DNA of 64,000 nt from Alphaproteobacteria bacterium (lineage in GTDB: Bacteria > Pseudomonadota > Alphaproteobacteria > UBA828 > JAPUJA01), in NCBI GenBank assembly GCA_963694715.1, contig CAVOEB010000002.1, positions 4,305 to 68,304 of the forward strand, given 5' to 3'. Positions 10,946-58,652 of this stretch are shown in pieces. A program made the translations under genes and the position numbers. The notes beneath the pieces were generated by a model that ran no database searches, was not told where the DNA came from, and saw only the letters and a program-made list of their open reading frames with translations. Position 1 is the stretch's first letter, and every line of letters begins with the position of its first letter.

Positions 10946-11799
10946 GGCGCTTCTCCATCATTGACATCGAGCGCCGCGCGCGCCGCGTCGGCCAGAAACG
11001 CCACCGCCTCGGCGAGAAACTCGCCGCCGCAGATCCACAACCGCGAGGGCACGAACAGCGTGGGGCGCTGGGCGATCGCATGCTGGAGCGCGGGATGGCG
11101 CAACAGGGTCTGGCCGAGCGACGCGGCGCCGGGCCAGTAACGCTCCATGAGCAGGACGTCGGGGTCGGCCGCGAGCAGACGCTCGAGCGAGAGGTAGCCG
11201 CCCACGCCTAGTCCGACCCGGGGGGCGAGGTTGATCAACCCCGCCTGACCGAGCAGGTCGTCGATTAGGGACGGTGCGCCGATGGTATGGCCGTTGGTCT
11301 GATAGACGGCAGCCACGGGGCGCCAGGCGCCCACGGGCGGGGCCAGAGCGGCGAGCCGGGCGTCGAGCGCGGCAAGCAGCGCCTCCGCCCGCACCGCTTC
11401 GCCGATCGCGGCTCCGACCTCGCGGATCTGCTCGCGCACGTCGGCAAGACTTTGGGCAACGGGCAGCTCGAGCACCGGAACGTCCAAGCGGCGCAGCAGG
11501 TTGACAGTGGCGCGGGTACTCATCGTGCCCGCCAGGACCAGATCGGGATGGAGCAGCAGCACCTCGTCGGCGCTGCCGCGCACGACCGGGAAGCGCTCGG
11601 CTTCGGCCGCGTGGTAGGAAAGATAGGGATCGCGCGCCACGAAGCTAAGGGCCGCGATGTGTTCGGGCTCAGCCAGCTCGAGCAGGATTTGGTCGGCGCA
11701 AAGGTTGAGGGAGACGATGCGCTCGGACTTGGCAACTGCCGACTCCGCCAACAGGAGCAGCAGCAGTACCAGCGCCAGAATCACGGTTGCAAAACGCAT
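10942..11799 (-). CDS. btuF: Periplasmic substrate-binding protein (BtuF/siderophore-binding class)
   Basis: Signal peptide MRFATVILALVLLLLLLAESAVA followed by a class III SBP-like fold (IVSLNLCADQILLEL). Confidence 0.7.
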   Translation of the reverse strand: MRFATVILALVLLLLLLAESAVAKSERIVSLNLCADQILLELAEPEHIAALSFVARDPYLSYHAAEAERFPVVRGSADEVLLLHPDLVLAGTMSTRATVNLLRRLDVPVLELPVAQSLADVREQIREVGAAIGEAVRAEALLAALDARLAALAPPVGAWRPVAAVYQTNGHTIGAPSLIDDLLGQAGLINLAPRVGLGVGGYLSLERLLAADPDVLLMERYWPGAASLGQTLLRHPALQHAIAQRPTLFVPSRLWICGGEFLAEAVAFLADAARAALDVNDGEAP

Positions 11800-11825
11800 C
11801 GTCCCCCCTCCCTTCTCCCGCAGCG

Positions 11826-13763
11826 CTAGAAGTCGAACCCGACGCCGAACAGACCGGCGATGCCCGGGCGGGCGAATCCGTCGGCGATTTCGTAGTCGCG
11901 ATCAAACAGGTTTTCCACCCGGCCCTGCAGGTGCACGCCGTCACCCAAATCGTAGGCTGCCGCAACATCGACGACCGTGTAGCTCGCCATGCGCACGCCG
12001 CCCACATCTACGGTCGAGCCCGTGTGTAGGGTTGCGAAATTGACGGTCAGGAGATCGAGCGGATACCAGGTCAGATTGACCGACGCCTTGTGCTTTGGCC
12101 GGCGCAGCAAATCCTCGTTGATCGACGAATCGAACGCGCGGGTAAAGGTGTAGTCGAGAGCAACCAGAACCTCGGGCAACGGCTGCACCTCGATAAAGGT
12201 TTCGATCCCGCGGGTTTTCGCCTCGTCGACGTTGCGGGTGGTAAACAGACCGGCTCCGGCGTCGAACACGAAGCCATCGATCAACTCGTCGATGTCGTTC
12301 TCGAAATAGGTCGCGCCCAACACCAGGCGTCCTGCAAGCAGCTCCTGCTCGACCCCCGCATCCCAGCCGAAGCTCTTCTCCGGCACGAGATCGGCATTAC
12401 CGAAAAACAGTCCGCTCACGCCGCCGAACAGATCGACCAGCGACGGAGCCTTGAAGCCGGTGCCGACGCTGGCGCGAAATGTCGTCGCCGTCTCGAGATG
12501 GCGATAGCCAAGACTCGCGCCGTAGGTGGTTTCGGATTCGAAGTCCCGGTTGTTGTCGCCGCGCACGCCAAGCGTGCCGAATACGCGCTTCGCAAACTCG
12601 AATTGGTACTCGGCGAAGGCACTATAGGTGCGCGACTGATCGGCAAAATTGAAGAATGCGCCGCCTCCGCTCTCGCCCTGTTCACGGCGGGCCTCAAGCC
12701 CAAGCACCAGCGTGCCGAGTGGGGCAATCTGGAAATCGTTGAGCAGGGCCGCCTCCATGACCGTCCCGTCGAAGATCGAGCGGCTGGTCTCGCCGACCCC
12801 CGATTCGGGGGGATTGTCGTTCTGGAAATCCTGATCGTTGAACCCGCCCGTCAACCGGGCACCCCAGAGATCGTCAACGAGGTCGGCCTTAACGTCGAGC
12901 TGAGCCAGACGGATCGTTCTAGAATCTTCGGCGTTCACATCGTCCGCCCCGAAGCTATCGATTTCGGTGACAGCCCTGACATACTGGCCGTAGAGGTCGA
13001 CCGTCACGCTCTCAGTCGGTGAAAAACCCAAGGCGATAGACGCGACATCGTTGCGGAAGCCGTCGTTCTCGGGGTTGCCCTCATCGTCGGGTGCGATCGA
13101 GACGCCATCGGTCCTGAGCTTCGCCAGATTGAGCTGCATGGTCACCGGCCCGGCATCGCCTCCCAGCCCCCAACGGCCCGAGACGGTCCGAAAGCTTCCG
13201 GCTTCAACGTGAGCGGAACCGGTGATAGGTCCGCTGACCCGTTTGGTGATAACGTTAATCACCCCGCCGATGGCGTCGGAGCCGTACAATACGCTGCGCG
13301 GACCCCGGACGATTTCGATGCGCGCGATATTATCTACCAACAAAGATTGCGGATCGAACACTCCGCCCGATCCAGCCGGATCACCGGCCCGCCGGCCGTT
13401 GACGAGAAAGAGCACGTGATTCGACTCGGTGCCGCGCATGAAGATTGAGGTCGCCGTTCCAGCACCGCCCAACTGGACGAGATTGAGCCCGGGTACGCTT
13501 CGCAAAGCGTCGTTGACGGAGCGGTGCTGACGCTCCTCAATTTCCTCAGCCGTTATAATCGTGATGGAACTCGCGACGCTCGTCGCCGGGGTGGGCAGGC
13601 TGGTCGCGGTAACGACGACGGGAGACGTCGTCCGGGTTGCCGGCTCCGGGTCTGCGGCACCGACGGTCGAGCTGATCGAAAGGGCGGCAAGAAGCGACGC
13701 ACCGGCCGCGACAGCGAGGCGACGAGAGGGCAACGATCGAATAGAACGTGGTGATTCGGGCAT
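11826..13763 (-). CDS. btuB: TonB-dependent outer-membrane receptor, probable cobalamin receptor
   Basis: Start MPESPRS at 13763, preceded by GGAG. Signal peptide, TonB box SPVVVTATS, plug and barrel, C-terminal aromatic (…GFDF). Lies downstream of a cobalamin riboswitch. Confidence 0.8.
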   Translation of the reverse strand: MPESPRSIRSLPSRRLAVAAGASLLAALSISSTVGAADPEPATRTTSPVVVTATSLPTPATSVASSITIITAEEIEERQHRSVNDALRSVPGLNLVQLGGAGTATSIFMRGTESNHVLFLVNGRRAGDPAGSGGVFDPQSLLVDNIARIEIVRGPRSVLYGSDAIGGVINVITKRVSGPITGSAHVEAGSFRTVSGRWGLGGDAGPVTMQLNLAKLRTDGVSIAPDDEGNPENDGFRNDVASIALGFSPTESVTVDLYGQYVRAVTEIDSFGADDVNAEDSRTIRLAQLDVKADLVDDLWGARLTGGFNDQDFQNDNPPESGVGETSRSIFDGTVMEAALLNDFQIAPLGTLVLGLEARREQGESGGGAFFNFADQSRTYSAFAEYQFEFAKRVFGTLGVRGDNNRDFESETTYGASLGYRHLETATTFRASVGTGFKAPSLVDLFGGVSGLFFGNADLVPEKSFGWDAGVEQELLAGRLVLGATYFENDIDELIDGFVFDAGAGLFTTRNVDEAKTRGIETFIEVQPLPEVLVALDYTFTRAFDSSINEDLLRRPKHKASVNLTWYPLDLLTVNFATLHTGSTVDVGGVRMASYTVVDVAAAYDLGDGVHLQGRVENLFDRDYEIADGFARPGIAGLFGVGFDF

Positions 13764-13994
13764 GGCTGACTCCGTTGGGAAACGTGGAATCCGCTGACGC
13801 CGGACGAGAGACGGGGATCGCCCGGGTAACAACCGAGCAAAGCGCGGCACCCGGACGGATGATGAGACGATCGAGCTACGGAACTTGTGAGCGGCCACCC
13901 CGAACATCCCTACACGGCAACAGCAGTTCCCTGCGTCACCACATACGGATTAACCGTCCCGTCGGGAGTCCCCACCCAACGGGTATGCGACGCT

Positions 13995-14170
13995 ATCCGA
14001 CGGCAGGTCTCCTGGCTTGCGGGTCACCGCCCGACACCCGGCCTTCCCAGTTTCCCAGTGGCACACGAGGGGTGCGGACTCGCCGCTGACAGTTGCGGGG
14101 GCAGCCACGTTTCGGTCTCAATCCGACCGCACCGTGTTCCCTTTTCAGCCCGCAGAAGCGGGCACCGTCG
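13995..14170 (-). ncRNA. Cobalamin (AdoCbl) riboswitch in the btuB leader
   Basis: Minus-strand sequence reads GGTGCC…GGGAACACGGTGCGGTCGGATTGAGACCGAAACGTGGCTGCCCCCGCAACTGTCAGCGG…GTGCCACTGGGAAACTGGGAAGGCCGGG…AAGCCAGGAGACCTGCC. The B12-box and the conserved GCCACTG / GGGAAGGC elements of RF00174 are all present. Confidence 0.8.
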
Positions 14171-14188
14171 CTATAAGGACTATAGGCC

Positions 14189-46675: not shown

Positions 46676-48415
46676 TTACATCCCCATTCCGCCCATTCCG
46701 CCCATTCCGCCCATTCCGCCCATTCCGCCCATTCCGCCCATTCCGCCCATTCCGCCCATTCCACCCGGGGGACCAGCACCGGGTCCACGGCCCATCGGCG
46801 GCGCTGCCGGCGGCTCCTTGGGCACATCGGGCGATTCCGTAATCATCGCCTCGGTGGTGAGCATGCGGGCGGCAACCGAGGCTGCATCTTCCAGCGCGCA
46901 GCGGACCACCTTGGTTGGGTCGATGATGCCGGCCTTGAAGAGATCCTCGTAGGTACCGGTTTCGGCGTTGAAGCCGATCGCCGGGTCCTTAGCGTCCATG
47001 CACTTCTGCACCACGACCCAGCCGTGCTCGCCCGCGTTTTCTGCGATCTGGCGTATCGGTTCCTGGAGAGCCTCGCGGACGATGTTGGCCCCGACGCGCT
47101 GGTCAGAATTTGGAAGCTCTATCTTGTCGAGAGCCTTGCGCGCTCGCAGCAATGCCAGGCCGCCGCCCGACACAACTCCCTCGGCAATCGCCGCACGGGT
47201 CGCGTTGAGCGAGTCGTTGACCCGATCCTTGCGTTCACGAACCTCGGTCTCCGTCGTGCCGCCGACACTGATGACTGCGACGCCCGAGGACAGTCGCGCG
47301 AGCCGCTCGTTGAGCTTCTCGTAATCGTAGGACGCTTTGGTGACCTCCATGGTCTTGCGGATTTCCTCGCACCGCTTCTTGAGATCTGCCTTCTTGCCTT
47401 TGCCGCCGATGATGGCGCAGTCGTCCTTGCGCACGACCACCTTGTCGACCCGGCCCAGCATGTCGAGGGTGACGTTTTCCAGCTTTTCGCCAGCGTCCGC
47501 ACTAACGTAATGAGCACCGGTGAGGATCGCGATGTCACGGAGCGATTCCTTGCGCCGGTCACCGAAACCCGCCCCCTTGACCGCAACGCACTTTAGGCCG
47601 CCCTGGACCTTGTTGGTCACCAGCGTCGCCAGGGCCTTGCCCTCAACGTCCTCGGCCACGATAAGGAGCGGCTTCTTGGCCTTGATGACGAGCTCGAGCA
47701 GTGGCACGAGAGCCGGAATCGCGTCGATCTTGGCTTCGAAGCACAGGACTAGCGCGTTGTTGTACTCACAGACCATCTGCTTGGGATCGGTGACGAAATG
47801 CGATGACAAATAGCCGCGATCCCATTTCATGCCCTCGGTCAGCTTGATTTCGGTCGTAAGGGACTTGCCCTCGTCGACACTAACGAGACCGTCGGTGCCC
47901 ACCGTCGTCATCGCCTCGGCGATCCACTCGCCAACCTCGCTATCGTTGTTGGCCGCAATGGTCGCAACCCGCGCGATCTCGTCGCGTTTTCCGATGGTGC
48001 GGCTCTGCTTCTTGAGCTCGTTGGCCACGGCCTTGGTCGCCGCGTCGATCCCCCGCTCGAGATCGATCGGGTTCATCCCGGCCGCCACGGCCTTGATCCC
48101 CTCACGCGCGATGCAGTGGCTAATCACCGTCGCCGTCGTGGTGCCATCGCCCGCCACATCGTTGGTACGCATCGCGACATCGCGAATCAGGCGCGCGCCC
48201 ATATTCTCGAACTTGTCTTCGAGCTCGACTTCCTTGGCGACGGTCACACCGTCCTTGGTGACCCGCATGCCCATGCTGAACGACTTAGTCAGCAGCACAT
48301 TACGCCCCTTCGGGCCGAGCGTTATCGCCACCGCCCTGTTCAGGATCTCGACCCCTCGAATCATGCGCTCACGGGCCTCCGCGGAAAACACGATATCCTT
48401 CCAGGATTCGGCCAT
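46676..48415 (-). CDS. groL: Chaperonin GroEL (divergent paralog with (GGM)9 tail)
   Basis: Start MAESWKDIVFSAEARERMIRGVEIL at 48415. GDGTTTATV and the equatorial/apical domain pattern. Only about 50% identical to canonical GroEL by eye. Confidence 0.85.
   Translation of the reverse strand: MAESWKDIVFSAEARERMIRGVEILNRAVAITLGPKGRNVLLTKSFSMGMRVTKDGVTVAKEVELEDKFENMGARLIRDVAMRTNDVAGDGTTTATVISHCIAREGIKAVAAGMNPIDLERGIDAATKAVANELKKQSRTIGKRDEIARVATIAANNDSEVGEWIAEAMTTVGTDGLVSVDEGKSLTTEIKLTEGMKWDRGYLSSHFVTDPKQMVCEYNNALVLCFEAKIDAIPALVPLLELVIKAKKPLLIVAEDVEGKALATLVTNKVQGGLKCVAVKGAGFGDRRKESLRDIAILTGAHYVSADAGEKLENVTLDMLGRVDKVVVRKDDCAIIGGKGKKADLKKRCEEIRKTMEVTKASYDYEKLNERLARLSSGVAVISVGGTTETEVRERKDRVNDSLNATRAAIAEGVVSGGGLALLRARKALDKIELPNSDQRVGANIVREALQEPIRQIAENAGEHGWVVVQKCMDAKDPAIGFNAETGTYEDLFKAGIIDPTKVVRCALEDAASVAARMLTTEAMITESPDVPKEPPAAPPMGRGPGAGPPGGMGGMGGMGGMGGMGGMGGMGGMGGMGM
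46685..46765 (-). repeat. Nine tandem copies of a 9-nt unit (CATTCCGCC on the plus strand) encoding the (GGM)n C-terminal tail of GroEL
   Basis: Eight perfect and one imperfect unit, read directly from the sequence. Confidence 0.9.
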
Positions 48416-48452: not shown

Positions 48453-48740
48453 TCAGGCGACCACCGCAAGAATGTCGTTTTCGCGTACGATCAGCATATC
48501 CTTGCCATCGAGCTTGACCTCGGTGCCCGAATATTTTCCGTAGAGCACGCGGTCGCCAGATTTAACCGTCAGTTTGATCAGCTTGCCGTTCTCGTCGCGC
48601 ACGCCCGAACCGACGGACACAACCTTGCCCTCGCTGGGCTTTTCCTGCGCCGTATCGGGAATAATGATGCCACCGGCGGTCTTTTCCTCGCTCTCAAGCG
48701 GCTTAATTAGCACGCGATCATGAAGAGGTCTGAATTTCAT
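48453..48740 (-). CDS. groS: Co-chaperonin GroES
   Basis: [35 protein letters not shown]…. Confidence 0.9.
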
Positions 48741-48812
48741 TGGTCACTCCCACCCTTCGAACGCCCCGGTTGGGGCAGAAATCCTTGAAAACTAGAGCTT
48801 TTCCCTAGTTTG

Positions 48813-48839
48813 TTAGCACTCGTTGCTTGTGAGTGCCAG
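48813..48839. promoter_or_regulatory. CIRCE element (HrcA operator) in the groES leader
   Basis: TTAGCACTC-gttgcttgt-GAGTGCCAG. Perfect left arm, 9-nt spacer, right arm 2 mismatches from GAGTGCTAA. Confidence 0.6.
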
Positions 48840-48840
48840 A

Positions 48841-48869
48841 TATGTAGGAGAATGCGCGCCGCCTGTCAA
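48841..48869 (-). promoter_or_regulatory. Sigma70-like promoter of groES-groEL
   Basis: Minus strand TTGACA-N17-TACATA immediately upstream of the CIRCE element. Confidence 0.45.
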
Positions 48870-48973
48870 GAACACACCCTGTTAATCGCCGGCAATCTTA
48901 GCGTTAACAGCCGGCTAGCCATTTCAAGCGAAGCTCATTTCCACTCAGAATTCAAGCGAAGATGGTCCTTGCG

Positions 48974-49648
48974 ATGTCCTTGCTGACGGTACGCGACGTG
49001 CTTAGCCATGACGAAGTGCGTGAGATTACCGACCGGCTGGCCGCCGGCGAATTCATCGATGGTTCCCTCACGACCCGAAACGCGCCCGCCACTCTCAAGC
49101 TCAATCAGGAGCTCCAGGCCGACGACACCCGCAAGCAGCTTGCGACCTCGGCAATCGACGCGCTCAACCGCAGCGATGCGATCCGCACCCACGCCTATCC
49201 CAACAGGTTTTCCTGCCCCATCTTCAGCCGCTACCAGGAAGGCGTGTATTACGGCTATCACACGGACGGCGCGATCCCGAACTGGGGTCATCCCAACGCG
49301 GTACGCAGCGACTTGTCGTGCACCGTATCTCTTAGCGAACCGGATAGCTACGACGGCGGCAAACTGACCATTCATGCCGGCTCCGAGCCGATTCAGCTCA
49401 AGATTCCCGCGGGCAGCGCCGCGATTTATCCGACCCCGAACCTGCACCGGGTCGAGACCGTGACCCGCGGCGAGCGGCTGGCCGCCGTGCTCTGGGTGCA
49501 TAGCTATGTGCGCGATCCGGCCCGTCGCGACATCCTCGCCAAATGCAACGACCTGGTCGAACGTCCGGGCGCAAAGGACATGAACGACGAGGCGACCCTC
49601 GAATCGAACGTTCTGCACGATCTGTTGCGCCAGTGGGCGGAGACTTGA
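48974..49648 (+). CDS. PKHD-type Fe(II)/2-oxoglutarate-dependent hydroxylase (PiuC/YbiX family)
   Basis: Start MSLLTVRDVLS. HxD…H facial triad pattern (HTDG…H) and 2OG-binding R near the C-terminus. Confidence 0.75.
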   Translation: MSLLTVRDVLSHDEVREITDRLAAGEFIDGSLTTRNAPATLKLNQELQADDTRKQLATSAIDALNRSDAIRTHAYPNRFSCPIFSRYQEGVYYGYHTDGAIPNWGHPNAVRSDLSCTVSLSEPDSYDGGKLTIHAGSEPIQLKIPAGSAAIYPTPNLHRVETVTRGERLAAVLWVHSYVRDPARRDILAKCNDLVERPGAKDMNDEATLESNVLHDLLRQWAET

Positions 49649-49661
49649 GCGCCGGGACGCA

Positions 49662-51071
49662 TCAATCTGCGAAAATCACGCCCGGGTTCATGATGCCGTT
49701 GGGATCGAGGGTTCGTTTGAGCCGGCGCATCAGCGCGATCTCTTCTTCCGTGCGACAAAGCCCGAGATAGTCCCGCTTCATAATACCGATTCCGTGCTCG
49801 GCGCTGATGCTGCCTTCGGCGTCGGCCACGAGGGTGTAGATGCGCTCTGCAAGGGGAGCGCCCTTCGCCCGGAACGTCTCGTCGGGCGCCTCGCGCTTCT
49901 GCACCATGTTGACGTGCAGATTGCCGTCGCCGAGATGGCCGTATACCAGGCAAAGCACGCCGCCGATGGCTTGGGCAATCGCGTCGAGTTTGGGCAGGAC
50001 CTCCGGGATCCGGCCGGGCGGCACGGTGACGTCGAACTTATGGGTCAGACCCTCGCGGCTGATCGCCTCGGTCACACCTTCGCGTAGCTGCCACAGTGCC
50101 GCCGCCTGGTCCTCCGATTCCGCGATCACGGCATCGACGGCATGCCCAGCCTCCAGGGCTGCCGCGAGAGCGTCCAGGAACCCCTCGCGTTCGCCCGCGC
50201 CCGCGCCGGATTCCGCCTCGACCAGGACGAGCAGAGGATAGATCGTGGCAAAGGGCCGGCGCGCCGCGGCATTATGCCGGAACAACAGCTCGATCGCCTC
50301 GCACCTGATCATCTCGAGCGACGAGAGCCCGGGCAGACCCTGGCGTAAGACTTCCAACAGACCGATGGCGGCAGTTGCAGTCTCGACCCCGAACAGCGCC
50401 GTGTGCCGGGCGGCGGGCCGGGGATGGGCCTGGAGTACGAGACGGGTGATCACGCCGAGAATGCCCTCGGATCCGATGAACAGCTGCTTGAGATCGAGGC
50501 CGGTGTTGTTTTTCCGCAGCTTGTTGAGCCCGCTCACCACGGTGCCGTCGGCCAGGACCGCCTCAATGCCGCGAATCTGGTCGCGCACATGGCCGTAGCG
50601 GATCACCTTGACGCCGCCCGCATTGGTCGACGCCATGCCGCCCAGCTGACAGGACCCGCGGGCCCCGAGATCGACGGGAAATACCTGCTCCCGCTCCGCG
50701 AGATACCGGTGCAAATTTTCCAGCACGACGCCGGCCTGGACCCGGACCGTGCCCGATGCGCTATCGAACTCTTCGATCGCGTTGAGCCGCGCAAGGCTGA
50801 GTACAACCTCGCCGTCGCGCGGCACCGAGCCGCCGACCAGCCCCGTGTTGCCGCCCTGGGGCACGACCGCGATACCATGGGCATCGCAGGCGCGCAGCAA
50901 CGTGCTGACCTGCTCGATGCTGTTGGGGCGAGCAACGAGGGCGGGCCGGCCGCTGAACTTGCGGGTCCAGTCGACGCCATAGGGGGCGACCTCGTCGGGC
51001 CCGGTCAGATACAATCCGGGCTCGTCGAGTGCCCCACGTAGCCGGCCCTCGATGTCGGTCATGACTTGCAC
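49662..51071 (-). CDS. FAD-linked oxidase (GlcD / D-lactate / D-2-hydroxyglutarate dehydrogenase family)
   Basis: 469 aa with PCMH-type FAD-binding domain (…VVPQGGNTGLVGGS…). Confidence 0.8.
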   Translation of the reverse strand: MQVMTDIEGRLRGALDEPGLYLTGPDEVAPYGVDWTRKFSGRPALVARPNSIEQVSTLLRACDAHGIAVVPQGGNTGLVGGSVPRDGEVVLSLARLNAIEEFDSASGTVRVQAGVVLENLHRYLAEREQVFPVDLGARGSCQLGGMASTNAGGVKVIRYGHVRDQIRGIEAVLADGTVVSGLNKLRKNNTGLDLKQLFIGSEGILGVITRLVLQAHPRPAARHTALFGVETATAAIGLLEVLRQGLPGLSSLEMIRCEAIELLFRHNAAARRPFATIYPLLVLVEAESGAGAGEREGFLDALAAALEAGHAVDAVIAESEDQAAALWQLREGVTEAISREGLTHKFDVTVPPGRIPEVLPKLDAIAQAIGGVLCLVYGHLGDGNLHVNMVQKREAPDETFRAKGAPLAERIYTLVADAEGSISAEHGIGIMKRDYLGLCRTEEEIALMRRLKRTLDPNGIMNPGVIFAD

Positions 51072-51138
51072 CTTCTCAGCGGAGCCCTAAACTTAGCGCC
51101 GCCAGCTCGAAACTGCACTTGCGAAAGCGCTGCTCCCT

Positions 51139-51801
51139 GTGAATCCGACGATCTTGTTTCTCGATTTCGACGGCGTCGTCGCCGACAGTATGCCGGCCAA
51201 GACCGATGCCTTCATCAAGGCGTTCGAGGGCTGCGGCTTTGCCCCCGACGCGATCGGCCGACTCTATCGTCGATTCTCAGGCAGCGGTCGGGACCGCATT
51301 TTTACCCTCGTCTTCGAGGAATTGGCCGCGCGCGCCATGACGGACGCGGAGCACAGCCGGGCGCAGGCGATCTTCGCCCGACTGGAAACGCAAGCCACAC
51401 CGGGACTGGCGCTATTTCCCGGGGTTGGGGATTTTTTGGCCCACGAGGCGACGCGACGCAGCCTCGTACTGGTGACGGGAACGCCCGCCGGGGTGATTGA
51501 TGCGATCCTTGAAAGCCTCGGCATAGCCGGTCATTTTACCGCCGTCTACAGCGCCACGCTCAACAATCCCAAAGAGCGCCATATGGCCGAAGAGCTCGAA
51601 TTCACCAACGTCTCGGCCGCCAACGCCCTGATGGTCGGCGATTCACTGGTCGACATGGAGGCCGCAAAGGCCGCGAACGTCGCCTTCGTCGGTGTCGGCG
51701 ACCCGGAATTCTTCGCTGGTGGAACGGCCGTTGCGATCATCGACAACCTGCCTGATATCGGCGCCCGGTTCGACGGGGCATGGCAAGAGAAGCCGGGGTG
51801 A
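51139..51801 (+). CDS. HAD-superfamily phosphatase (phosphoglycolate-phosphatase/beta-PGM-like)
   Basis: N-terminal DxDG motif LFLDFDGVVADS. Confidence 0.75.
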   Translation: MNPTILFLDFDGVVADSMPAKTDAFIKAFEGCGFAPDAIGRLYRRFSGSGRDRIFTLVFEELAARAMTDAEHSRAQAIFARLETQATPGLALFPGVGDFLAHEATRRSLVLVTGTPAGVIDAILESLGIAGHFTAVYSATLNNPKERHMAEELEFTNVSAANALMVGDSLVDMEAAKAANVAFVGVGDPEFFAGGTAVAIIDNLPDIGARFDGAWQEKPG

Positions 51802-52673
51802 TGTTCGAAGGCTTCGAACAGCGGACCATCGAGACCGACGGCGCAGCCATCGATCTCGTGGTGGGCGGCGACGGGCCGTCGGTCCTGCTGCTTCACGGCT
51901 ATCCCCAGACCCGCGCCATGTGGCACGCCGTTGCGCCGAAGCTGGCAGAACGTTACCGGGTGGTGGTGCCCGACCTGCGCGGTTACGGCGACAGCACGAA
52001 GCCGCCAGGCGGCCCCGACCACGCGGGATACTCCAAACGCGCCATGGCCGCCGACCAAGTCGCCGTCATGGCCGCGTTGGGCGCGGACCGCTTCGCGGTT
52101 CTGGGCCACGACCGGGGCGCACGGGTGGGACACCGGATGGCGCTCGACCACCGGGACCGGGTGGAGCGGCTTGCGGTGCTCGATATCGTGCCCACGCTGG
52201 CGGTGTTCAGCCAGCTTAGCCAGGGCGTCGCGACGGGCTACTACCACTGGTTCTTCCTGATCCAGGACGAGCCGCTGCCCGAGCGGCTGATCGGCAACGA
52301 TCCGAAATTTTACCTGCACTGGTGCCTTGCCCGGCTCGGCGGCAGCCTCGAGATGTTCCACCCGGACGCGCTGGCCGAATACGAGCGCTGCTTCACTGCC
52401 GAGACCATCCATGCGAGCTGCGAGGACTATCGCGCTGCGGCATCGATCGACCTCGATCACGACCGGGCCGATCTCGACCGAATCCTCACCTGCCCGGTGC
52501 TCGCCCTGTGGGGCGCCCAGGGGCGGGTTCACCAGTGGTACGACGTGCTTGCATGTTGGCGCGAACGCGCCGAACAGGTATCGGGTAACGCGATCGATGC
52601 CGGCCATTTTCTGGTCGAGGAGCGTGCCTCCGGGGTCGGCGACGCCCTGCTCGACTTTCTCGGAACAGGCTGA
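51801..52673 (+). CDS. Alpha/beta-hydrolase, fluoroacetate/haloacetate dehalogenase (DehH1/FAcD) family
   Basis: Start MFEGFEQRTIE overlaps the HAD stop (TGATG). LHGYPQT…DLRGYGDSTKP…PDHAGYS, nucleophile region GHDRGARVGHRMALDH, halide-pocket HW in YYHWFF, and SCEDYRAAASID all mirror FAcD signatures as recalled. Confidence 0.7.
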   Translation: MFEGFEQRTIETDGAAIDLVVGGDGPSVLLLHGYPQTRAMWHAVAPKLAERYRVVVPDLRGYGDSTKPPGGPDHAGYSKRAMAADQVAVMAALGADRFAVLGHDRGARVGHRMALDHRDRVERLAVLDIVPTLAVFSQLSQGVATGYYHWFFLIQDEPLPERLIGNDPKFYLHWCLARLGGSLEMFHPDALAEYERCFTAETIHASCEDYRAAASIDLDHDRADLDRILTCPVLALWGAQGRVHQWYDVLACWRERAEQVSGNAIDAGHFLVEERASGVGDALLDFLGTG

Positions 52674-52676
52674 ACC

Positions 52677-53915
52677 GTGAAGATCCTCGTGCTTGGAGCC
52701 GGCATCGTCGGCGTGACGTTGGCCTGGTTTCTCGCCCAGGACGGCCACGAGGTCACGGTGATCGAGCGGCGCGAGGGCGCGGGGTTGGAGACCAGCTTTG
52801 CCAACGGTGGCCAGCTCGCGAGCAGTTCCGCCGAGCCTTGGGCGAACCCGGCGGCGATCCGCACCGCGCTATCCTCCATCGGCCGCGAGGACGGAACGCT
52901 GATCATGCGCCTGCGCGCCGATCCCGCCATGTGGCTCTGGTGTCTGCAGTTTTTACGCAACTGCACAACCGCACGCGCCCGGCGCAACCGGATACCCCTG
53001 ATCAGGCTGGGCCTGCATTCCCGCGCCATGATGGAAACCGTGCTGGCCGAGACCACGATCGCGTTCGACGAGGAACGCCGTGGAATTCTCGATCTCGTGG
53101 CCGACCCCCGCACGCTCGAGCGTGAAGCCCGTCATGGCGACGATGGCACCGGGCGCGAGGTCGTCGATCACGCCCGTTGCCTAGCCATCGAGCCCGCGCT
53201 CGAAGACTGCCGGGACAAATTCGCCGGCGGGCTTTACTTCCCGACCGACCGCAGCGGCGACGCGCATCGCTTTACCCACTCGCTGGCCGCAGATTGCGAA
53301 CGCCTTGGAGTCGAGTTTCGCTACGAAACCGCAATTTCGAGAATCCGCACTCAAGGCGACATGGTTTCTTCGGTCGAGACGAGCGCCGGCTCACTCACGG
53401 CGGATGCCTACGTCCTGTGCCTGGGCAGTGAAAGCCGCCGCCTGGCCCGCCCGCTTGGCCTGCGCCTGCCAATCTACCCGGTGAAGGGTTATTCCGTGAC
53501 CATCCCCACAGCGGGAGCCAACCGGGCGCCCCGGGTCAGCCTGTCCGATGAAACTCGGAAAATCGTTATTTCGCGCCTGGGCGACCGGCTGCGCGCTGCC
53601 GGCACCGCCGAGCTTGCGGGCGACGATAGAACCCTAAATCCGGTGCGCAGCCGCGCCGTGCTGAACGCACTGATGGACCTGTTCCCCAACGGCGGCGATG
53701 CCGAGCAGGCGGAGTTCTGGACTGGTTTGCGCCCCATGACGCCCGACGGTGCCCCGATTTTGGGGCCAAGTACGCATCTCAACCTGTTCCTCAACACCGG
53801 TCACGGCACGCTCGGCTGGACCACGGCCTGCGGCACCGCCGAACTGCTGGTCGACATCATCGCCGGCCGGTCCCCGGCCATCGAGCTGAACGGACTGACC
53901 CTGGCCCGCTTCTAG
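52677..53915 (+). CDS. dadA: D-amino-acid dehydrogenase small subunit (FAD)
   Basis: MKILVLGAGIVGVTLAWFLAQDGHEVTVIER… and overall DadA pattern. Confidence 0.8.
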   Translation: MKILVLGAGIVGVTLAWFLAQDGHEVTVIERREGAGLETSFANGGQLASSSAEPWANPAAIRTALSSIGREDGTLIMRLRADPAMWLWCLQFLRNCTTARARRNRIPLIRLGLHSRAMMETVLAETTIAFDEERRGILDLVADPRTLEREARHGDDGTGREVVDHARCLAIEPALEDCRDKFAGGLYFPTDRSGDAHRFTHSLAADCERLGVEFRYETAISRIRTQGDMVSSVETSAGSLTADAYVLCLGSESRRLARPLGLRLPIYPVKGYSVTIPTAGANRAPRVSLSDETRKIVISRLGDRLRAAGTAELAGDDRTLNPVRSRAVLNALMDLFPNGGDAEQAEFWTGLRPMTPDGAPILGPSTHLNLFLNTGHGTLGWTTACGTAELLVDIIAGRSPAIELNGLTLARF

Positions 53916-53997
53916 GGTCGCTTCAGGGGGCGATTGCCCGCGCGGCGTACTCCGCTAGAATGACGACTTCATTGGATGAAGAGGGAGCGCGCGGGCT

Positions 53998-55227
53998 ATG
54001 GCAGAGACAATAGAGATCAACCGCGATCGCCTGATCAGCCGGCTCAACGAGCTGGCTAAAATCGGCGCGACGCCGGCGGGCGGCGTGCACCGACTTGCCT
54101 ATACGGACGAGGACAAGGCGGGCCGCGATCTTTTCGTGCGCTGGTGCGAAGACGCCGGGCTCGCGGTACGGGTCGACGAGATGGGCAATATTTTTGCCCG
54201 TCACGGCGACGCCGACGGTGCGCCGGTATTCGCCGGCTCTCATCTCGACAGCCAACCCAAGGGCGGACGCTACGACGGCGCCTACGGCGTGCTGGGCGCA
54301 TTGGAGGCCGTGCAATCCATCAAGGAGGCCGGCCACGCCCTCGCCCACCCCGTCGAGGCCGTGGCCTGGAGCAACGAGGAAGGCAGCCGCTTTCCCCCCT
54401 CCATGATCGGATCGGGCGTGTTCGCCGGACACTTTACCCTGGACTACGCCTATGGCTGCACCAGCCGCGACGGCAAGACCCAGGGCGGAGAGCTTGAACG
54501 CATCGGCTACAAGGGCGACGTGCCGTGCAAGGCGGGGGCGTTGCACCGCTATTTCGAGTTACATATCGAGCAAGGCCCTATTCTCGACGCCGAGGAAATT
54601 CGGCTCGGCGTCGTCGAAGGCGTCTATGGCCTCTACTGGCTTGAGCTGCGCCTCAAGGGCCAGGCCAACCACGCCGGCTCGACGCCCATGGAGTTGCGCC
54701 GCGACACGCTGATGGCCGCCGCCGAAATCTTTCTCGCGGCCGAGAAGCTACCCACGGAGATGGGCGACGGCAACCGCCTGACCGTAGGCTATATCGAGGT
54801 CGTTCCCAACTCGGTCAATGTGATCCCCGGCGATCTTACCTGCACCTTCGATCTGCGCTCGCAAGATCCGGCGACACTCGATGGAATGCGCGAACGCCTG
54901 GCCGCCATCATCGAGGAGATCGCGGCGCGGCGCTCCCTGGAGCACGAAATCGTCGAGCTTTCGGCGAACCCCATGGTGACTTTCGCACCCTCCTGCCAGG
55001 ACGTCGTCGAACAGGCGGCTCAAGCCCTCGGCCTGTCCAACCAGCGCATGTATTCCGGCCCCGGGCACGACGCCGTGTGGGTCTCGACGGTGTGCGACAC
55101 AGGCATGATCTTTGTGCCCAGCATCGGCGGTATCAGCCATGCCGAGATCGAGGACACCCTCGACGACGATCTCGCCGCCGGGGCGCGCGTGCTGGCAACC
55201 GCCATGTGGAAGAGCGCGGCCGGCTGA
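53998..55227 (+). CDS. M20-family amidohydrolase (N-carbamoyl-L-amino-acid hydrolase / allantoate amidohydrolase type)
   Basis: 409 aa. Pattern …GSHLDSQPKGGRYDGAYGVLGALEAV… typical of AmaB/AllC. Confidence 0.8.
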   Translation: MAETIEINRDRLISRLNELAKIGATPAGGVHRLAYTDEDKAGRDLFVRWCEDAGLAVRVDEMGNIFARHGDADGAPVFAGSHLDSQPKGGRYDGAYGVLGALEAVQSIKEAGHALAHPVEAVAWSNEEGSRFPPSMIGSGVFAGHFTLDYAYGCTSRDGKTQGGELERIGYKGDVPCKAGALHRYFELHIEQGPILDAEEIRLGVVEGVYGLYWLELRLKGQANHAGSTPMELRRDTLMAAAEIFLAAEKLPTEMGDGNRLTVGYIEVVPNSVNVIPGDLTCTFDLRSQDPATLDGMRERLAAIIEEIAARRSLEHEIVELSANPMVTFAPSCQDVVEQAAQALGLSNQRMYSGPGHDAVWVSTVCDTGMIFVPSIGGISHAEIEDTLDDDLAAGARVLATAMWKSAAG

Positions 55228-55269
55228 CGGCGCGTAAACAGGCTCGAAAGCCCGCGGAATAATGCACCG

Positions 55270-55737
55270 ATGCTGACCATCTTCCTGATCGCCTTCGTGA
55301 CCGTCGCTTACGCGGGCTACAACCTGTTCGTCAAGGTGGCCGCCGATCACCTGCCCGCTACAACGACTACGACAGTGCTGGCAACGCTGTCGATGCAGGT
55401 TATGACGTTGATCCCCACCCTCGGCTTGCTTGCCATCCTATCGATCCAGGGTGGACACAACTTCAAGCTGAATTTGGGCACCGTTAAGTGGGCGATGATC
55501 GCGGGCTTGTGTATCGGCAGTGCGGAGGTCGCCTACTACTATCTTTTTTCCGGGTTGGGCGGCGGCCGGACAATGCCCGCCAATGTCGTCATTCCCATCG
55601 TCGTCTGCGGCACCGTGGTGATTACAGCCCTCGTGTCTTTCTTCCTTTTTCGCGAAAGCTTTTCCTGGCCGCAGATCCTGGGCTCGGCACTGGTGATCGG
55701 CGGCGTGTTTTTGATTCTCTGGGGCCCGCGTTCGTGA
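55270..55737 (+). CDS. Small EamA/ArnE-like 4-TM membrane protein
   Basis: 155-aa hydrophobic protein. Directly upstream of a GT2 glycosyltransferase. Confidence 0.55.
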   Translation: MLTIFLIAFVTVAYAGYNLFVKVAADHLPATTTTTVLATLSMQVMTLIPTLGLLAILSIQGGHNFKLNLGTVKWAMIAGLCIGSAEVAYYYLFSGLGGGRTMPANVVIPIVVCGTVVITALVSFFLFRESFSWPQILGSALVIGGVFLILWGPRS

Positions 55738-55762
55738 GGAGGCTCCCGGCAGGTAGCGTGGC

Positions 55763-56881
55763 GTGAGCGGGATGATCTTCGCCGCAGCCAGCGCGGCAAT
55801 CTGGCTCGTTATCCTGCTCTTGCCGTGGCGGCCCTGGAGCACCCGCGAAACCCTCGATGCGACACCGGGCGAACCTGCGCCCGACCTCTCCGACCTGACC
55901 GTTTTGATCCCGGCCCGTAACGAAGCGAGCGTCATAGGCGAAGTGCTCGCCGCGCTCGGCGCGCAAGGTTCGCACTTACGAATCGTCCTGATCGACGACC
56001 AATCCGACGACGGCACGGCAGCGGCGGCCCGCGCCGGCTCACCCGAGGGTCTGGAGATCGTCAACGGCGAGCCACTTCCGGAGGGCTGGAGCGGCAAGCT
56101 CTGGGCTCTCGAACAGGGTCGAAAGCACGCCAACACGGCGCTTCTTCTGTTGCTCGATGCGGACATCCGACTTGAGCCCGGAACCATTCCAGCGTTGTTG
56201 CGCCGGCGGGGCGAGAGCGGCGCCGCGTTCGTGTCGCTGATGGCCCAGCTGCGTATGGTCAGCGGATGGGAAATCCTGCTGATGCCGGCGTTCGTTTATT
56301 TCTTCAAGCTGCTCTACCCCTTCGCACTCTCGAACGCGGCGCGCGGCTCCATCGCGGCGGGCGCGGGAGGCTGCATCCTGGTCGAGGCTCAGGCGATTGA
56401 AAAAATCGGCGGCTTTGGCGCCATCCAGGGCGCGTTGATCGACGATTGCGCGCTGGCACGTGCCATCAAACATGACGGCCAGCGCACCTGGATTGGCCTG
56501 ACCCATTCCGCCGTCAGTCTCCGCTCCTACCGCGTACTGGGCGAAATCTGGGGCATGGTTGCCCGCAATGCCTTTACCCAGTTGCGTTACTCACCCGTTC
56601 TCTTGTTGCTCGTCACCGCCGTCTTCGCGCTGGCCTGCGCCATGCCCCTGCTGGCCCTCGTCGCCTTTCCCGGCGTGGGCGTCAAGATTCTCGGAGGCCT
56701 TGGTCTCGCCGCCATGATCGTGAGCTACATCCCGACGCTCCGCTATTACGGGCTTTCACCCCTGCTTGCCCTTTCCATGCCGGTTATCGGGGCGCTCTAC
56801 CTGGCGATGACCTGGAGTTCGGCGTTCCGCTATTGGCGGGGGCACCGTTCGCGATGGAAGGGGCGCGTCTACCGTCGCTGA
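55763..56881 (+). CDS. Family 2 glycosyltransferase with C-terminal membrane domain (possibly HpnB-like)
   Basis: N-terminal TM, GT-A motifs PARNEA…DDQSDDGT…DAD, multiple C-terminal helices. Confidence 0.7.
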   Translation: MSGMIFAAASAAIWLVILLLPWRPWSTRETLDATPGEPAPDLSDLTVLIPARNEASVIGEVLAALGAQGSHLRIVLIDDQSDDGTAAAARAGSPEGLEIVNGEPLPEGWSGKLWALEQGRKHANTALLLLLDADIRLEPGTIPALLRRRGESGAAFVSLMAQLRMVSGWEILLMPAFVYFFKLLYPFALSNAARGSIAAGAGGCILVEAQAIEKIGGFGAIQGALIDDCALARAIKHDGQRTWIGLTHSAVSLRSYRVLGEIWGMVARNAFTQLRYSPVLLLLVTAVFALACAMPLLALVAFPGVGVKILGGLGLAAMIVSYIPTLRYYGLSPLLALSMPVIGALYLAMTWSSAFRYWRGHRSRWKGRVYRR

Positions 56882-56991
56882 ACCTCGAAGCCACTCTTTT
56901 GATGGAGTGATTGTCCCGTGCCCCGAATTGCGCTAAGCCTGCGCCTGCACCGCGCAACGCGGCGTGGCAAAAGACAACGGCCATCGGGCAC

Positions 56992-57288
56992 ACCATGACG
57001 GACGCGCTGTTCCGGCGCCTCGCTGACACCGACCGGAAACGGGTGGTTATCGTCGTCGACGGCGAGCCGGTCGAAGCCCTGGCCGGCGACACCCTTCTCA
57101 CGGCCCTGCTCACCACCGGCCATCACTTAAGAGATTCCGAATTCGGCGACGGGCCCCGCGCCGGATTTTGTCTGATGGGCGCCTGCCAGGATTGCTGGAT
57201 CAACCTCGAAGCGGGCGGACGGGTTCGGGCCTGCAGCACCTTCGTCTCCGACGGCCTACGAGTGCGCAGGCCCAAATCGACCTCATGA
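56992..57288 (+). CDS. Small [2Fe-2S]-binding subunit (HcnA / sarcosine-oxidase-alpha N-terminal type)
   Basis: Start MTDALFRRLA inferred. Pattern V.VDGEP..A..GDTLL.ALL…F.C.MG.CQDCW…G..R.C. Confidence 0.6.
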   Translation, partial: TMTDALFRRLADTDRKRVVIVVDGEPVEALAGDTLLTALLTTGHHLRDSEFGDGPRAGFCLMGACQDCWINLEAGGRVRACSTFVSDGLRVRRPKSTS

Positions 57289-58652
57289 CGGGCCCTCGTG
57301 TCCTGATCGTTGGCGCTGGGCCGGCCGGCAGCCGCGCCGCCGCCGTCCTCGCCGCTGCGGGCTTGCGGCCGGTCGTCGTTGATGAAGCGCCGCGCAGCGG
57401 GGGCCAGGTATATCGTCGTCCGCCACGGGATTGCCACCGCCCGGCCAAGGATCTCTACGGTTTCGAGGCGGCCAAGGCCCTCGACCTGCACCGAGCCTTC
57501 GATGGCCTGGGCGAGGCCGTCGACTACCGGCCCGAGACCCTGGTCTGGAACGTCCATGACGGCGAGGCCTGCACGCGCCACAGTGACGGCACCCTGGAGC
57601 GTATTCCCTACGACGCAGCCCTGCTTGCTACCGGCGCCATGGACCGGATCATCCCCTTCCCCGGCTGGACGACACCGGGCGTCTACACCCTCGGCGCCGC
57701 GCAGATCGCCTACAAATACCAGGGTTGCGCCATCGGCAGCTGCGTCGCGCTGCTCGGCACCGGCCCGCTTCTCTACCTCGTTGCCTATCAATACGCGACG
57801 CACGGCGCGGAGGTCGCCGTCGTGCTCGATACCGCCCGCCTGAGCGACGGGGTGCGCGCCCTGCCCGACTTGCTGTGGGGCGGGGCGACCTTCGCGAAGG
57901 GCCTTTATTACCGAAGCTGGCTCGCGCTACACGGTATTCCCCTGCGCAACGGGGTGACGCCGATCGGCGTCGACGGCGAAGACCGCGTGCGTGCCCTTCG
58001 CTATCGGGACAGCCGCGGGCGTGAACACCATCTCGCCTGCGATGCACTGGCCTTCGGCTACAGTTTGCGTTCCGAAACCCAGCTTGCCGATCTTTTGGGC
58101 TGCGCCTTCGAGTTCGATCCGCTGGGCTATCAGTGGCGGCCCCGGGCAGACGGCGATGGTCGCGCCAGCATCAAAAGCGTCTACCTCGCCGGAGACGGTG
58201 CCGGGATTTCGGGAGCAGACGCCGCCGATCGGCGGGGCGAACTCGCGGCACTTGCCCTGCTTGCGGATCACGGCCAGGCCGTGGATACGCGTCGGGTGGC
58301 GCGCTTGCGCCGGGAACTTGCCCGCCTGCAACGTTTTCGCCGTGGTCTCGAGACCGCATTTCCCTTTCCGCGACGTCTCGCGGAAGGCCTCGGCGATGAC
58401 GTCCTGCTGTGCCGCTGCGAATCCATCAAGGCCGGAGAATTTCGCGCCCAGGCACACGGTCTCGGCGCCGCCGAGGTGAATCGCGCGAAGGCTTTCAGCC
58501 GCGTCGGCATGGGCCGCTGCCAGGGCCGGGTCTGCCACACCGCAGCGGCCGAAGTTCTGGCGGAACAACTGGGCTGCGAGGCAGCGGCGGTCGGCCGACT
58601 GCGCGGCCAGGCGCCGATCAAACCTTTACCCATCCCGGGGCAGGGCTCATGA
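57285..58652 (+). CDS. FAD/NAD(P)-binding oxidoreductase subunit (HcnB / opine-oxidase subunit A type)
   Basis: Start MTGPRVLIVGAGPAGSRAAAVLAAAG overlaps the upstream stop (ATGA). Cys-rich C-terminal region CRCE…C.GRVC. Confidence 0.75.
   Translation: MTGPRVLIVGAGPAGSRAAAVLAAAGLRPVVVDEAPRSGGQVYRRPPRDCHRPAKDLYGFEAAKALDLHRAFDGLGEAVDYRPETLVWNVHDGEACTRHSDGTLERIPYDAALLATGAMDRIIPFPGWTTPGVYTLGAAQIAYKYQGCAIGSCVALLGTGPLLYLVAYQYATHGAEVAVVLDTARLSDGVRALPDLLWGGATFAKGLYYRSWLALHGIPLRNGVTPIGVDGEDRVRALRYRDSRGREHHLACDALAFGYSLRSETQLADLLGCAFEFDPLGYQWRPRADGDGRASIKSVYLAGDGAGISGADAADRRGELAALALLADHGQAVDTRRVARLRRELARLQRFRRGLETAFPFPRRLAEGLGDDVLLCRCESIKAGEFRAQAHGLGAAEVNRAKAFSRVGMGRCQGRVCHTAAAEVLAEQLGCEAAAVGRLRGQAPIKPLPIPGQGS

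Follow-up and report, generated by a model that had tools for sequence, protein, structure and literature searches.

The window analysed here, a stretch of 64,000 nucleotides, encodes a 290-aa alpha/beta-hydrolase (51801..52673, + strand) that by sequence and fold is a genuine and convincing new member of the known FAcD family (EC 3.8.1.3), and thus a predicted haloacetate/fluoroacetate dehalogenase. Taking all the evidence together, we consider it probable that this FAcD dehalogenase gene represents a lineage-specific insertion into an older gene backbone, next to an oxidase resembling D-2-hydroxyglutarate dehydrogenase (D2HGDH), and that the genes found side by side do not form a glycolate pathway. 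The host is an uncultured bacterium that is so far known from metagenome contigs only.

The hydrolase and its active site

When the hydrolase was used as a phmmer query against the PDB, it retrieved 3qyj (2e-106), 9c9f (5e-93), 8sdc (2e-87), 1y37 (5e-83) and 3r3u (2e-77), and the Pfam model Abhydrolase_1 matches it with 116 bits. The protein is 46.7% identical to FA1, 51% identical to both DAR3835 and the D4B enzyme, and 55.9% identical to NOS0089. NOS0089 and DAR3835 are listed as defluorinating fluoroacetate as well as difluoroacetate (review PMC11022551, Table 2 and text), and an identity of ~56% to the assayed NOS0089 is good evidence, short of proof, for the predicted activity of the window enzyme. 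Its AlphaFold model (pLDDT 91.5, pTM 0.92) shows an alpha/beta-hydrolase core with a helical cap that is superposable on the solved FAcDs, with Foldseek TM scores of 0.94-0.97 and rmsd values of 1.3-1.6 Å against 3qyj, 8sdc, 9c9f, 1y37 and 3r3u. A generic epoxide hydrolase was rejected as an identification, since epoxide hydrolases and Cif-type enzymes are reached only at E-values of 1e-40 to 1e-16, where members of the FAcD group give 1e-106 to 1e-75. Note also that two PDB entries, 4b9a and 4b9e, carry the label 'probable epoxide hydrolase' and yet fall in the FAcD group, one of them having been crystallised with monofluoroacetate.

The first-pass annotation had attributed FAcD/DehH1 signatures to this protein and proposed an alignment to characterised enzymes, and the attribution is borne out. 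The motifs that it quoted lie at residues 102-112 (GHDRGARVGHR), 149-150 (the HW pair) and 206-217 (SCEDYRAAASID), and the Asp, His, Trp, Tyr and Arg positions are all kept, including those of the halide pocket. The nucleophile Asp104 and its triad partners His269 and Asp128 align with D104, H271 and D128 of FA1, the carboxylate-binding pair Arg105 and Arg108 corresponds to R105/R108, and the halide pocket His149/Trp150/Tyr210 corresponds to H149/W150/Y212 of the same enzyme. In RPA1163, the counterparts of D104, R105, R108 and D128 are presumably D110, R111, R114 and D134, and those of H149, W150, Y210 and H269 we take to be H155, W156, Y219 and H280; the RPA1163 sequence behind this numbering was cross-checked by its internal numbering and by the 46% identity given independently by Foldseek. 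All eight functional residues are invariant across 204 family sequences, implying strong selection on the active site. By homology, Arg105 and Arg108 would hold the carboxylate of a 2-haloacetate during SN2 attack of Asp104 on the alpha-carbon, with His149, Trp150 and Tyr210 stabilising the leaving halide; a water molecule activated by His269 and Asp128 would then hydrolyse the glycolyl-enzyme ester to release glycolate and halide.

At the position of the tunnel gate, which is W185 in RPA1163 (PMC13328661), the window hydrolase has Leu179. A gate Trp is typical of the family and does not define it: Trp is found in 162 and Leu in 25 of the 204 family sequences, the latter including the whole window clade. 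The replacement of the gate Trp by Leu179 may allow somewhat looser access for slightly bulkier 2-haloacids. As W185 of RPA1163 is an engineered gate position, an enzyme that carries Leu there is a modestly useful test case for substrate scope.

The genes around the hydrolase

The gene arrangement described in the first-pass annotation is fully present in the sequence. The stop codon of a HAD-superfamily gene (51139..51801, + strand) and the hydrolase ATG share one base (TGATG, hydrolase start at 51801), and an FAD oxidase gene (49662..51071, − strand) lies divergently just upstream, separated from the HAD gene by an intergenic region of 67 nt (51072..51138). Describing these as a gene trio is correct in that the three genes are adjacent, but the oxidase gene is not co-directional with the other two, and a further gene had been overlooked: it starts 3 nt past the hydrolase stop (52677..53915, + strand) and encodes a D-amino-acid dehydrogenase of the DadA family (412 aa; NF001933 485 bits, cut-off 383; Pfam DAO). 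The co-directional unit is thus HAD-hydrolase-DadA, and these three genes are probably co-transcribed, their tight packing pointing to co-expression and possibly reflecting an unseen functional link. A scan of positions 48700-57000 for promoter and terminator consensus sequences found as many hits as expected from shuffled sequence, so that transcription units are not definable from it, and no consensus promoter was detected in the oxidase/HAD intergenic region. Further downstream is a gene for an M20-family Zn amidohydrolase of the allantoate / N-carbamoyl-amino-acid amidohydrolase subfamily (53998..55227, + strand; NF006769 498.7 bits, cut-off 452), which is a conserved member of the backbone and lies outside the proposed trio. 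Fluoride riboswitches were searched for in the 64-kb window and none was found, the only elements detected being a cobalamin riboswitch and one tRNA.

The oxidase (an ORF of 469 aa, or 466 aa from the ATG used by gene callers) combines FAD_binding_4 and FAD-oxidase_C domains and is assigned to the VAO-type FAD-linked D-2-hydroxyacid dehydrogenases. Its earlier label of 'GlcD-like' is right at the level of the superfamily, but not in the sense of GlcD itself, as the scores against the GlcD equivalogs TIGR00387 (276.5 bits, cut-off 567.9) and NF008408 (182.4 bits, cut-off 897) are far too low and the distal residues are those of D2HGDH. The best PDB matches are RPA1076 (3pm9, 3e-103) and human D2HGDH (6lpn, 7e-102), whereas glycolate oxidase 9qgz is found only at 8e-51. 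R330, T334, K345, Y377 and H379 of the oxidase correspond to R386, T390, K401, Y432 and H434 of human D2HGDH, and H386, N388, E425 and H426 to H441, N443, E475 and H476, all nine residues being kept; the Zn ligands, the residues that bind C1 and C2, and the binders of the distal (C5) carboxylate (T334, K345, Y377 and N388) are therefore retained. In GlcD and D-LDH, small or hydrophobic residues replace the polar distal pocket of D2HGDH (PMC7801405). Among the Pfam-labelled gene calls within 10 kb there are no GlcE/GlcF partners, with neither a second FAD_binding_4 product nor a GlcF-like product. Judged by these residues and scores, the enzyme looks like a dehydrogenase of the D-2-hydroxyglutarate type and not like GlcD, and it is predicted to use D-2-hydroxyglutarate or D-malate as its substrate instead of glycolate.

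The HAD protein (220 aa; Pfam HAD_2/Hydrolase) is a subfamily-IA phosphatase-like protein with HAD motifs I-IV and a DxD pair (D9xD11, T113, K145, D168/D172) that are invariant in a 9-sequence family alignment. Its designation as a 'phosphoglycolate-phosphatase type' enzyme applies to the superfamily and fails at the equivalog level, as the best model for this function, NF009695, scores 62.8 bits where 225 are required, and TIGR01449 scores 51.8 bits where 180 are required. The family profile reaches at best 52 bits in the PDB, and only 11 homologues were found among 5.8 billion proteins; by sequence, it is a narrow-lineage, generic phosphatase of the COG0546 type. A role of this protein as a haloacid dehalogenase was also considered and rejected, since its motif I is a phosphatase-type DxD and only phosphatase-type models match.

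Synteny and competing explanations

The trio is confined to the window clade, in which it extends to hydrolases of 71% identity, while the divergent pairing of oxidase and HAD genes is kept in four out of four lineages in which the context of the HAD gene is visible. The backbone is conserved in two other contigs, L087 and L088. The latter carries the order GroES-2OG-oxidase(-)-HAD-DadA-M20-EamA-GT2, with proteins 44-64% identical to those of the window, and lacks the hydrolase; on a further contig, L090, the oxidase(-)-HAD pair is followed by a LamB_YcsF gene, again without the hydrolase. Conservation of the trio in other genomes, proposed earlier as a check, did not hold: in a neighbour analysis of 80 FAcD-homologue loci from other species, in which the ORFs of all six frames were searched with HMMs, no locus had a HAD, a VAO-type oxidase or a close DadA neighbour (HAD/oxidase within 6 kb). 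Together with the L088 arrangement, this makes the dehalogenase gene look like a lineage-specific insertion, which would have been placed between HAD and dadA in an older backbone consisting of the D2HGDH-like oxidase gene and, divergently, HAD-DadA-amidohydrolase-EamA-GT2. The event could be a gain in the window clade or a loss in L088; with two outgroup contigs and the levels of identity, without a root, to go by, it is best explained as an insertion. Given such an insertion and the predicted substrates of the oxidase, the three genes would be neighbours that do not make up a glycolate pathway.

The family to which the hydrolase belongs is very widespread, with at least 7999 close homologues at E<=1e-40 (of 8000 candidates scored) and homologues 54-66% identical to it in many phyla. 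Several gene contexts are conserved, namely AFG1-ABH, NUDIX-ABH-DUF502-RecG and PFK-ABH-AccA, and all are non-catabolic: in the NJ sister clade of the window hydrolase the gene lies downstream of an AFG1-type ATPase gene, and 22 other loci have DUF502 and RecG genes downstream of the FAcD homologue. The FAcD family thus has several gene contexts that are unrelated to one another and for the most part housekeeping, and at none of the loci surveyed does it lie next to genes for glycolate utilisation. Its wide conservation in housekeeping contexts means that the substrate in the cell may be something other than a haloacetate, and raises the possibility, which we regard as unlikely, that FAcD chemistry serves another small carboxylate with a leaving group, in a housekeeping or detoxification role, defluorination being a side activity. 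The number and spread of the homologues and their non-catabolic neighbours would fit such a role, as would the variability of the gate residue within the family and the invariance of the active site although natural fluoroacetate is rare. It is opposed by the observation that the family members assayed and cited here all dehalogenate haloacetates, by the His-Trp-Tyr halide pocket and the two Arg, which are specific adaptations to a halo-carboxylate, and by the plausibility of chloro- and bromoacetates as natural substrates.

The close packing of the co-directional genes bears on two further proposals. In one, which we consider improbable, an FAcD gene has been recruited into a HAD-DadA operon as a functioning step of an unrecognised pathway, and the Leu gate fits a natural substrate different from fluoroacetate, such as a bulkier carboxylate with a 2-halo or other alpha-substituent; if true, this would give a widespread family its first physiological role and an operon logic. 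In the other, which is likewise improbable, HAD-hydrolase-DadA is a true operon of an unrecognised pathway, which could for instance deal with amino or hydroxy acids carrying a halogen or another alpha-substituent, and the Leu gate suits the hydrolase to the substrate concerned. Both the overlap with HAD and the 3-nt spacer to dadA speak for such an operon, the clade keeps the gene order to an identity as low as 71%, and Leu179 is fixed throughout it. The hydrolase gene shows no compositional mark of recent transfer, its codon usage being indistinguishable from that of its neighbours (GC3 0.83 versus 0.75-0.81; correlation 0.85), so the association is not recent. Nevertheless, the arrangement is limited to one narrow clade, the backbone functions without the hydrolase in L088, and no chemical logic joins the reactions of HAD, hydrolase and DadA. 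Moreover, in L087 the gap between the HAD stop and the probable hydrolase start is ~28 nt and that between hydrolase and dadA is 82 nt; the coupling is thus not conserved, which counts against an operon.

The module put forward in the first-pass annotation had glycolate as the common product or substrate of the trio, being formed from haloacetate by the hydrolase and from 2-phosphoglycolate by the HAD protein, and oxidised to glyoxylate by the divergent oxidase. In its favour, the hydrolase is expected to make glycolate from haloacetates, the HAD protein is labelled 'phosphoglycolate phosphatase' by JGI and its best, though weak, matches bear the same name, the oxidase shares its 2-hydroxyacid dehydrogenase subfamily with GlcD and has retained the residues that contact the C1-carboxylate and the C2-hydroxyl in any 2-hydroxyacid, and the trio persists over the identity range given above. 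These points are outweighed by the oxidase and HAD scores below the GlcD and phosphoglycolate phosphatase cut-offs, the polar distal pocket of the oxidase, the missing GlcE- and GlcF-like neighbours, the location of the oxidase gene on the opposite strand, the oxidase-HAD pairs of L088 and L090 that do without a hydrolase, and the 80 loci devoid of such neighbours. The synteny and residue comparisons thus largely refute the module, to which we assign very little probability; an operon of this kind would have been a novelty, but it is not supported by the evidence.

Comparison with known systems

The hydrolase is an ordinary new member of an already known family. Hydrolytic enzymes that cleave C-F bonds are sought for organofluorine clean-up, and it adds one more natural FAcD variant to these; the survey of gene contexts, in turn, is a small addition that bears on the natural role of FAcD enzymes. 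Its relationship to Alr0039/NOS0089 (Nostoc sp. PCC 7120, PDB 3qyj) extends over the full length of the protein, with an identical triad, two identical Arg and an identical His-Trp-Tyr pocket, a shared Cys at the position of RPA1163 K181, and superposition of the model at TM 0.96-0.97 and rmsd 1.3 Å. The two differ at the gate, where Trp179 of NOS0089 is replaced by Leu179, and in their genomic context, since cyanobacterial NOS0089 homologues have IS elements, stress genes and photosynthesis genes as neighbours (bioRxiv 10.1101/2025.07.23.666183) and the window hydrolase gene has HAD and dadA. The mechanistically characterised FAcDs RPA1163 (Rhodopseudomonas palustris) and FAc-DEX FA1 (Burkholderia sp. 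FA1) are more distant, at ~46-47% identity, and match in the eight functional residues. The gate pair of RPA1163, which we take to be K181-W185, is replaced by C175-L179.

As for the neighbouring genes, the oxidase conserves all Zn-, C1/C2- and C5-carboxylate-binding residues of human D2HGDH (6lpn) and RPA1076 (3pm9). In bacteria, D2HGDH genes are often adjacent to serA (see PMC9504171), whereas the conserved partner of the window oxidase is the divergent HAD phosphatase gene. With GlcDEF it shares the superfamily of VAO-type FAD 2-hydroxyacid dehydrogenases, but it differs in its sub-cut-off scores, the absence of GlcE/GlcF and a distal pocket of the D2HGDH type. Similarly, the HAD protein has subfamily IA and the DxD motif in common with the phosphoglycolate phosphatase Gph, but stays far under the curated equivalog cut-offs.

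Gene order around the hydrolase

ORF listing and family scans place GroEL and GroES (minus strand) beside a PiuC/YbiX-type Fe(II)/2OG dioxygenase (48962-49648, plus), followed by a VAO-type FAD oxidase (49662-51071, minus), a HAD-superfamily protein (51139-51801, plus), an alpha/beta hydrolase (ABH) of the fluoroacetate dehalogenase (FAcD) family (51801-52673, plus), a DadA-family D-amino-acid dehydrogenase (52677-53915, plus; NF001933, 485 bits against a cut-off of 383) and an M20 amidohydrolase (53998-55227, plus). An EamA transporter, a GT2 glycosyltransferase and a Fer2_4/Pyr_redox_2/DAO oxidase set come after M20. What the first-pass annotation had observed in the sequence, including the overlap of start and stop, is correct: the HAD stop codon and the hydrolase ATG have one base in common (TGATG). 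The dadA gene starts 3 nt past the hydrolase stop, and 67 nt separate the divergently oriented oxidase and HAD genes. The co-directional unit is HAD-hydrolase-DadA, with the oxidase on the opposite strand. The tight packing of these three genes makes their co-transcription probable, so a functional link that has gone unrecognised retains a small probability.

Several other features of the window were recorded. A 9-nt tandem repeat (46683-46766; 9.3 copies, 98% matches) codes for the Gly-Gly-Met tail at the GroEL C-terminus and creates a spurious 'WAEWAE' ORF on the opposite strand. The MBL-fold protein at 45711-46598 matches Blh, a bifunctional sulfur transferase/dioxygenase, scoring 372.7 bits where the cut-off is 625; the match spans profile positions 141-423, only the C-terminal dioxygenase half, and the protein is probably a stand-alone persulfide-dioxygenase-like enzyme. 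The Fer2_4/Pyr_redox_2/DAO set (56911-58652 and onward) is opine- or sarcosine-oxidase-like; two class-III aminotransferases and FolD lie upstream of it, and in related contigs it is followed by a Zn-ADH gene, two GATase genes and an ABC permease gene, so that the wider region looks like one of amine and amino-acid catabolism. A cobalamin riboswitch (13985-14184, 116.7 bits) heads an operon (8125-14184, minus) encoding a TonB-dependent receptor, a periplasmic binding protein, a FecCD permease, an ABC ATPase and TonB, in all a B12-type uptake system, which coincides with a GC-rich stretch with strong AT skew (8-12 kb).

Predicted functions of the oxidase and the HAD protein

The oxidase had been called GlcD-like, after the glycolate oxidase subunit, but its scores on GlcD equivalog models fall below the cut-offs (276.5 against 567.9 and 182.4 against 897). 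Among solved structures it is closest to RPA1076 (3e-103) and human D-2-hydroxyglutarate dehydrogenase (D2HGDH; 7e-102), whereas a solved glycolate oxidase and the D-lactate dehydrogenases match only at about 1e-50. In D2HGDH the distal C5-carboxylate is bound by Thr390, Lys401, Tyr432 and Asn443; small or hydrophobic residues replace these four in GlcD and D-LDH, which is why the latter accept glycolate or D-lactate and not D-2-hydroxyglutarate (PMC7801405). The oxidase carries T334, K345, Y377 and N388 at the corresponding positions, together with R330, H379, H386, E425 and H426, and no GlcE- or GlcF-like neighbour is found among the gene calls within 10 kb. GlcD identity was rejected on these grounds; the best prediction is a dehydrogenase for D-2-hydroxyglutarate or D-malate.

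In the HAD protein the motifs (D9xD11, T113, K145, D168/D172) are of the phosphatase type. Its proposed identity as a phosphoglycolate phosphatase is not supported, the best such model giving 62.8 bits, short of its cut-off of 225; that label mirrors the general COG0546-type family. The HAD-family profile reaches 52 bits at most against solved structures, and a search of 5.8 billion proteins found only 11 homologues, so that this is a narrow family. In the window (49662-51801) and in loci L087, L088, L089 and L090, its gene and that of the D2HGDH-like oxidase are always divergent neighbours, 'always' referring to four lineages with visible HAD gene context. Bacterial SerA makes D-2-hydroxyglutarate, and the HAD enzymes include phosphoserine phosphatases; a link of the pair to the serine pathway is conceivable, though purely speculative.

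Conservation and origin of the arrangement

The hydrolase recurs in identical form on 13 metagenome contigs, with gene order unchanged in six of the six places shown, where contig ends limit the comparison. The order also persists in L087, whose hydrolase homologue is 71% identical and probably starts about 28 nt past the HAD stop, with 82 nt to dadA. Outside this clade, in 80 loci from species-representative genomes with hydrolase homologues 54-66% identical, no HAD or oxidase homologue lies within 6 kb (tblastn at 1e-10 and 1e-3); HAD-family HMM and phmmer searches of all six-frame ORFs again gave 0/80, and a distant DAO-family gene is present in a single locus. Conservation of the trio beyond this clade is thus not borne out.

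L088 contains GroES-2OG-oxidase(-)-HAD-DadA-M20-EamA-GT2-Fer2_4, with proteins 44-64% identical to those of the window, and lacks the hydrolase, 58 nt separating HAD from dadA; in L090, oxidase(-)-HAD is followed by a LamB_YcsF gene. These arrangements identify oxidase and HAD as the conserved pair. For the hydrolase, the simplest explanation is that the ancestor of the window clade gained it by insertion between HAD and dadA, although it may instead have been lost in the other lineages. Since its codon usage and GC3 are like those of its neighbours, the insertion, or loss, was not recent. The envisaged module leading from haloacetate or phosphoglycolate via glycolate to glyoxylate is therefore unsupported: the predicted oxidase specificity is wrong for it, no substrate can be assigned to the HAD protein, and the trio is a separable association of one narrow lineage.

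FAcD-family genes have at least three other conserved contexts (L009-L072, 22 loci; L091; L092). Rhodospirillales-type genomes show NUDIX-ABH-DUF502-RecG, with a DUF502 membrane protein gene downstream in 22 of the 80 loci, RecG nearby in 16 and NUDIX in 10; Rubrobacter-type genomes show PFK-ABH-AccA. Metagenome proteins form the sister group to the window clade in a neighbour-joining tree; their genes have the order AFG1 ATPase-ABH-YceI/aldehyde dehydrogenase, the hydrolase gene lying directly 3' of the AFG1-type ATPase gene in 3/3 cases examined. None of the three is a catabolic cluster, and this prompts the question of what the family does physiologically. The main value of the analysis lies in this survey and in the testing and rejection of the operon idea.

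The hydrolase and its relatives

Against all PDB sequences, the hydrolase best matches Alr0039 (3qyj, 2e-106), followed by the Delftia D4B fluoroacetate dehalogenase (9c9f, 5e-93), Daro3835 (8sdc, 2e-87), FAc-DEX FA1 (1y37, 5e-83) and RPA1163 (3r3u, 2e-77). An epoxide hydrolase or Cif-type identity was discarded, such matches being 1e-40 or weaker and behind the FAcD group. According to a review, Alr0039 is NOS0089, which it lists with DAR3835 as defluorinating fluoroacetate and difluoroacetate; the functional residues it gives are Asp104-His271-Asp128 and Trp150 in FA1, and Asp110-His280-Asp134, His155, Trp156 and Tyr219 in RPA1163 (PMC11022551). D104, R105, R108, D128, H149, W150, Y210 and H269 of the hydrolase occupy FA1-equivalent positions (pairwise alignment, positions checked), and all eight are invariant among 204 family sequences. 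Its AlphaFold model (pLDDT 91.5, pTM 0.92) superposes on FAcD crystal structures with TM 0.94-0.97 and rmsd 1.3-1.6 Å. Together with the identities to characterised enzymes, these results make FAcD membership, as first proposed, well supported. By homology, the mechanism would be SN2 attack and ester hydrolysis.

In RPA1163 the tunnel gate tryptophan is W185, a residue described as a gatekeeper and targeted by engineering (PMC13328661). Leu179 (codon 52335-52337) takes its position in the hydrolase, and leucine is found there throughout the window clade (P0001-P0009); the family alignment has Trp in 162/204 and Leu in 25/204, with Arg, Phe and Tyr also present. The mapping relies on what we take to be the RPA1163 sequence: it reproduces every published residue number, the 46% identity to the hydrolase agrees with the Foldseek value for 3r3u, and alignments with FA1 and NOS0089 independently show the same gate column. 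The smaller residue may widen substrate access. Cys175 corresponds to K181, the partner of W185 in RPA1163, and NOS0089 and FA1 likewise have Cys there. With identities of 55.9% (NOS0089), 51% (DAR3835 and the D4B enzyme, each) and 46.7% (FA1), the hydrolase is a new member of a well-known family, a natural gate-position variant with predicted dehalogenase activity.
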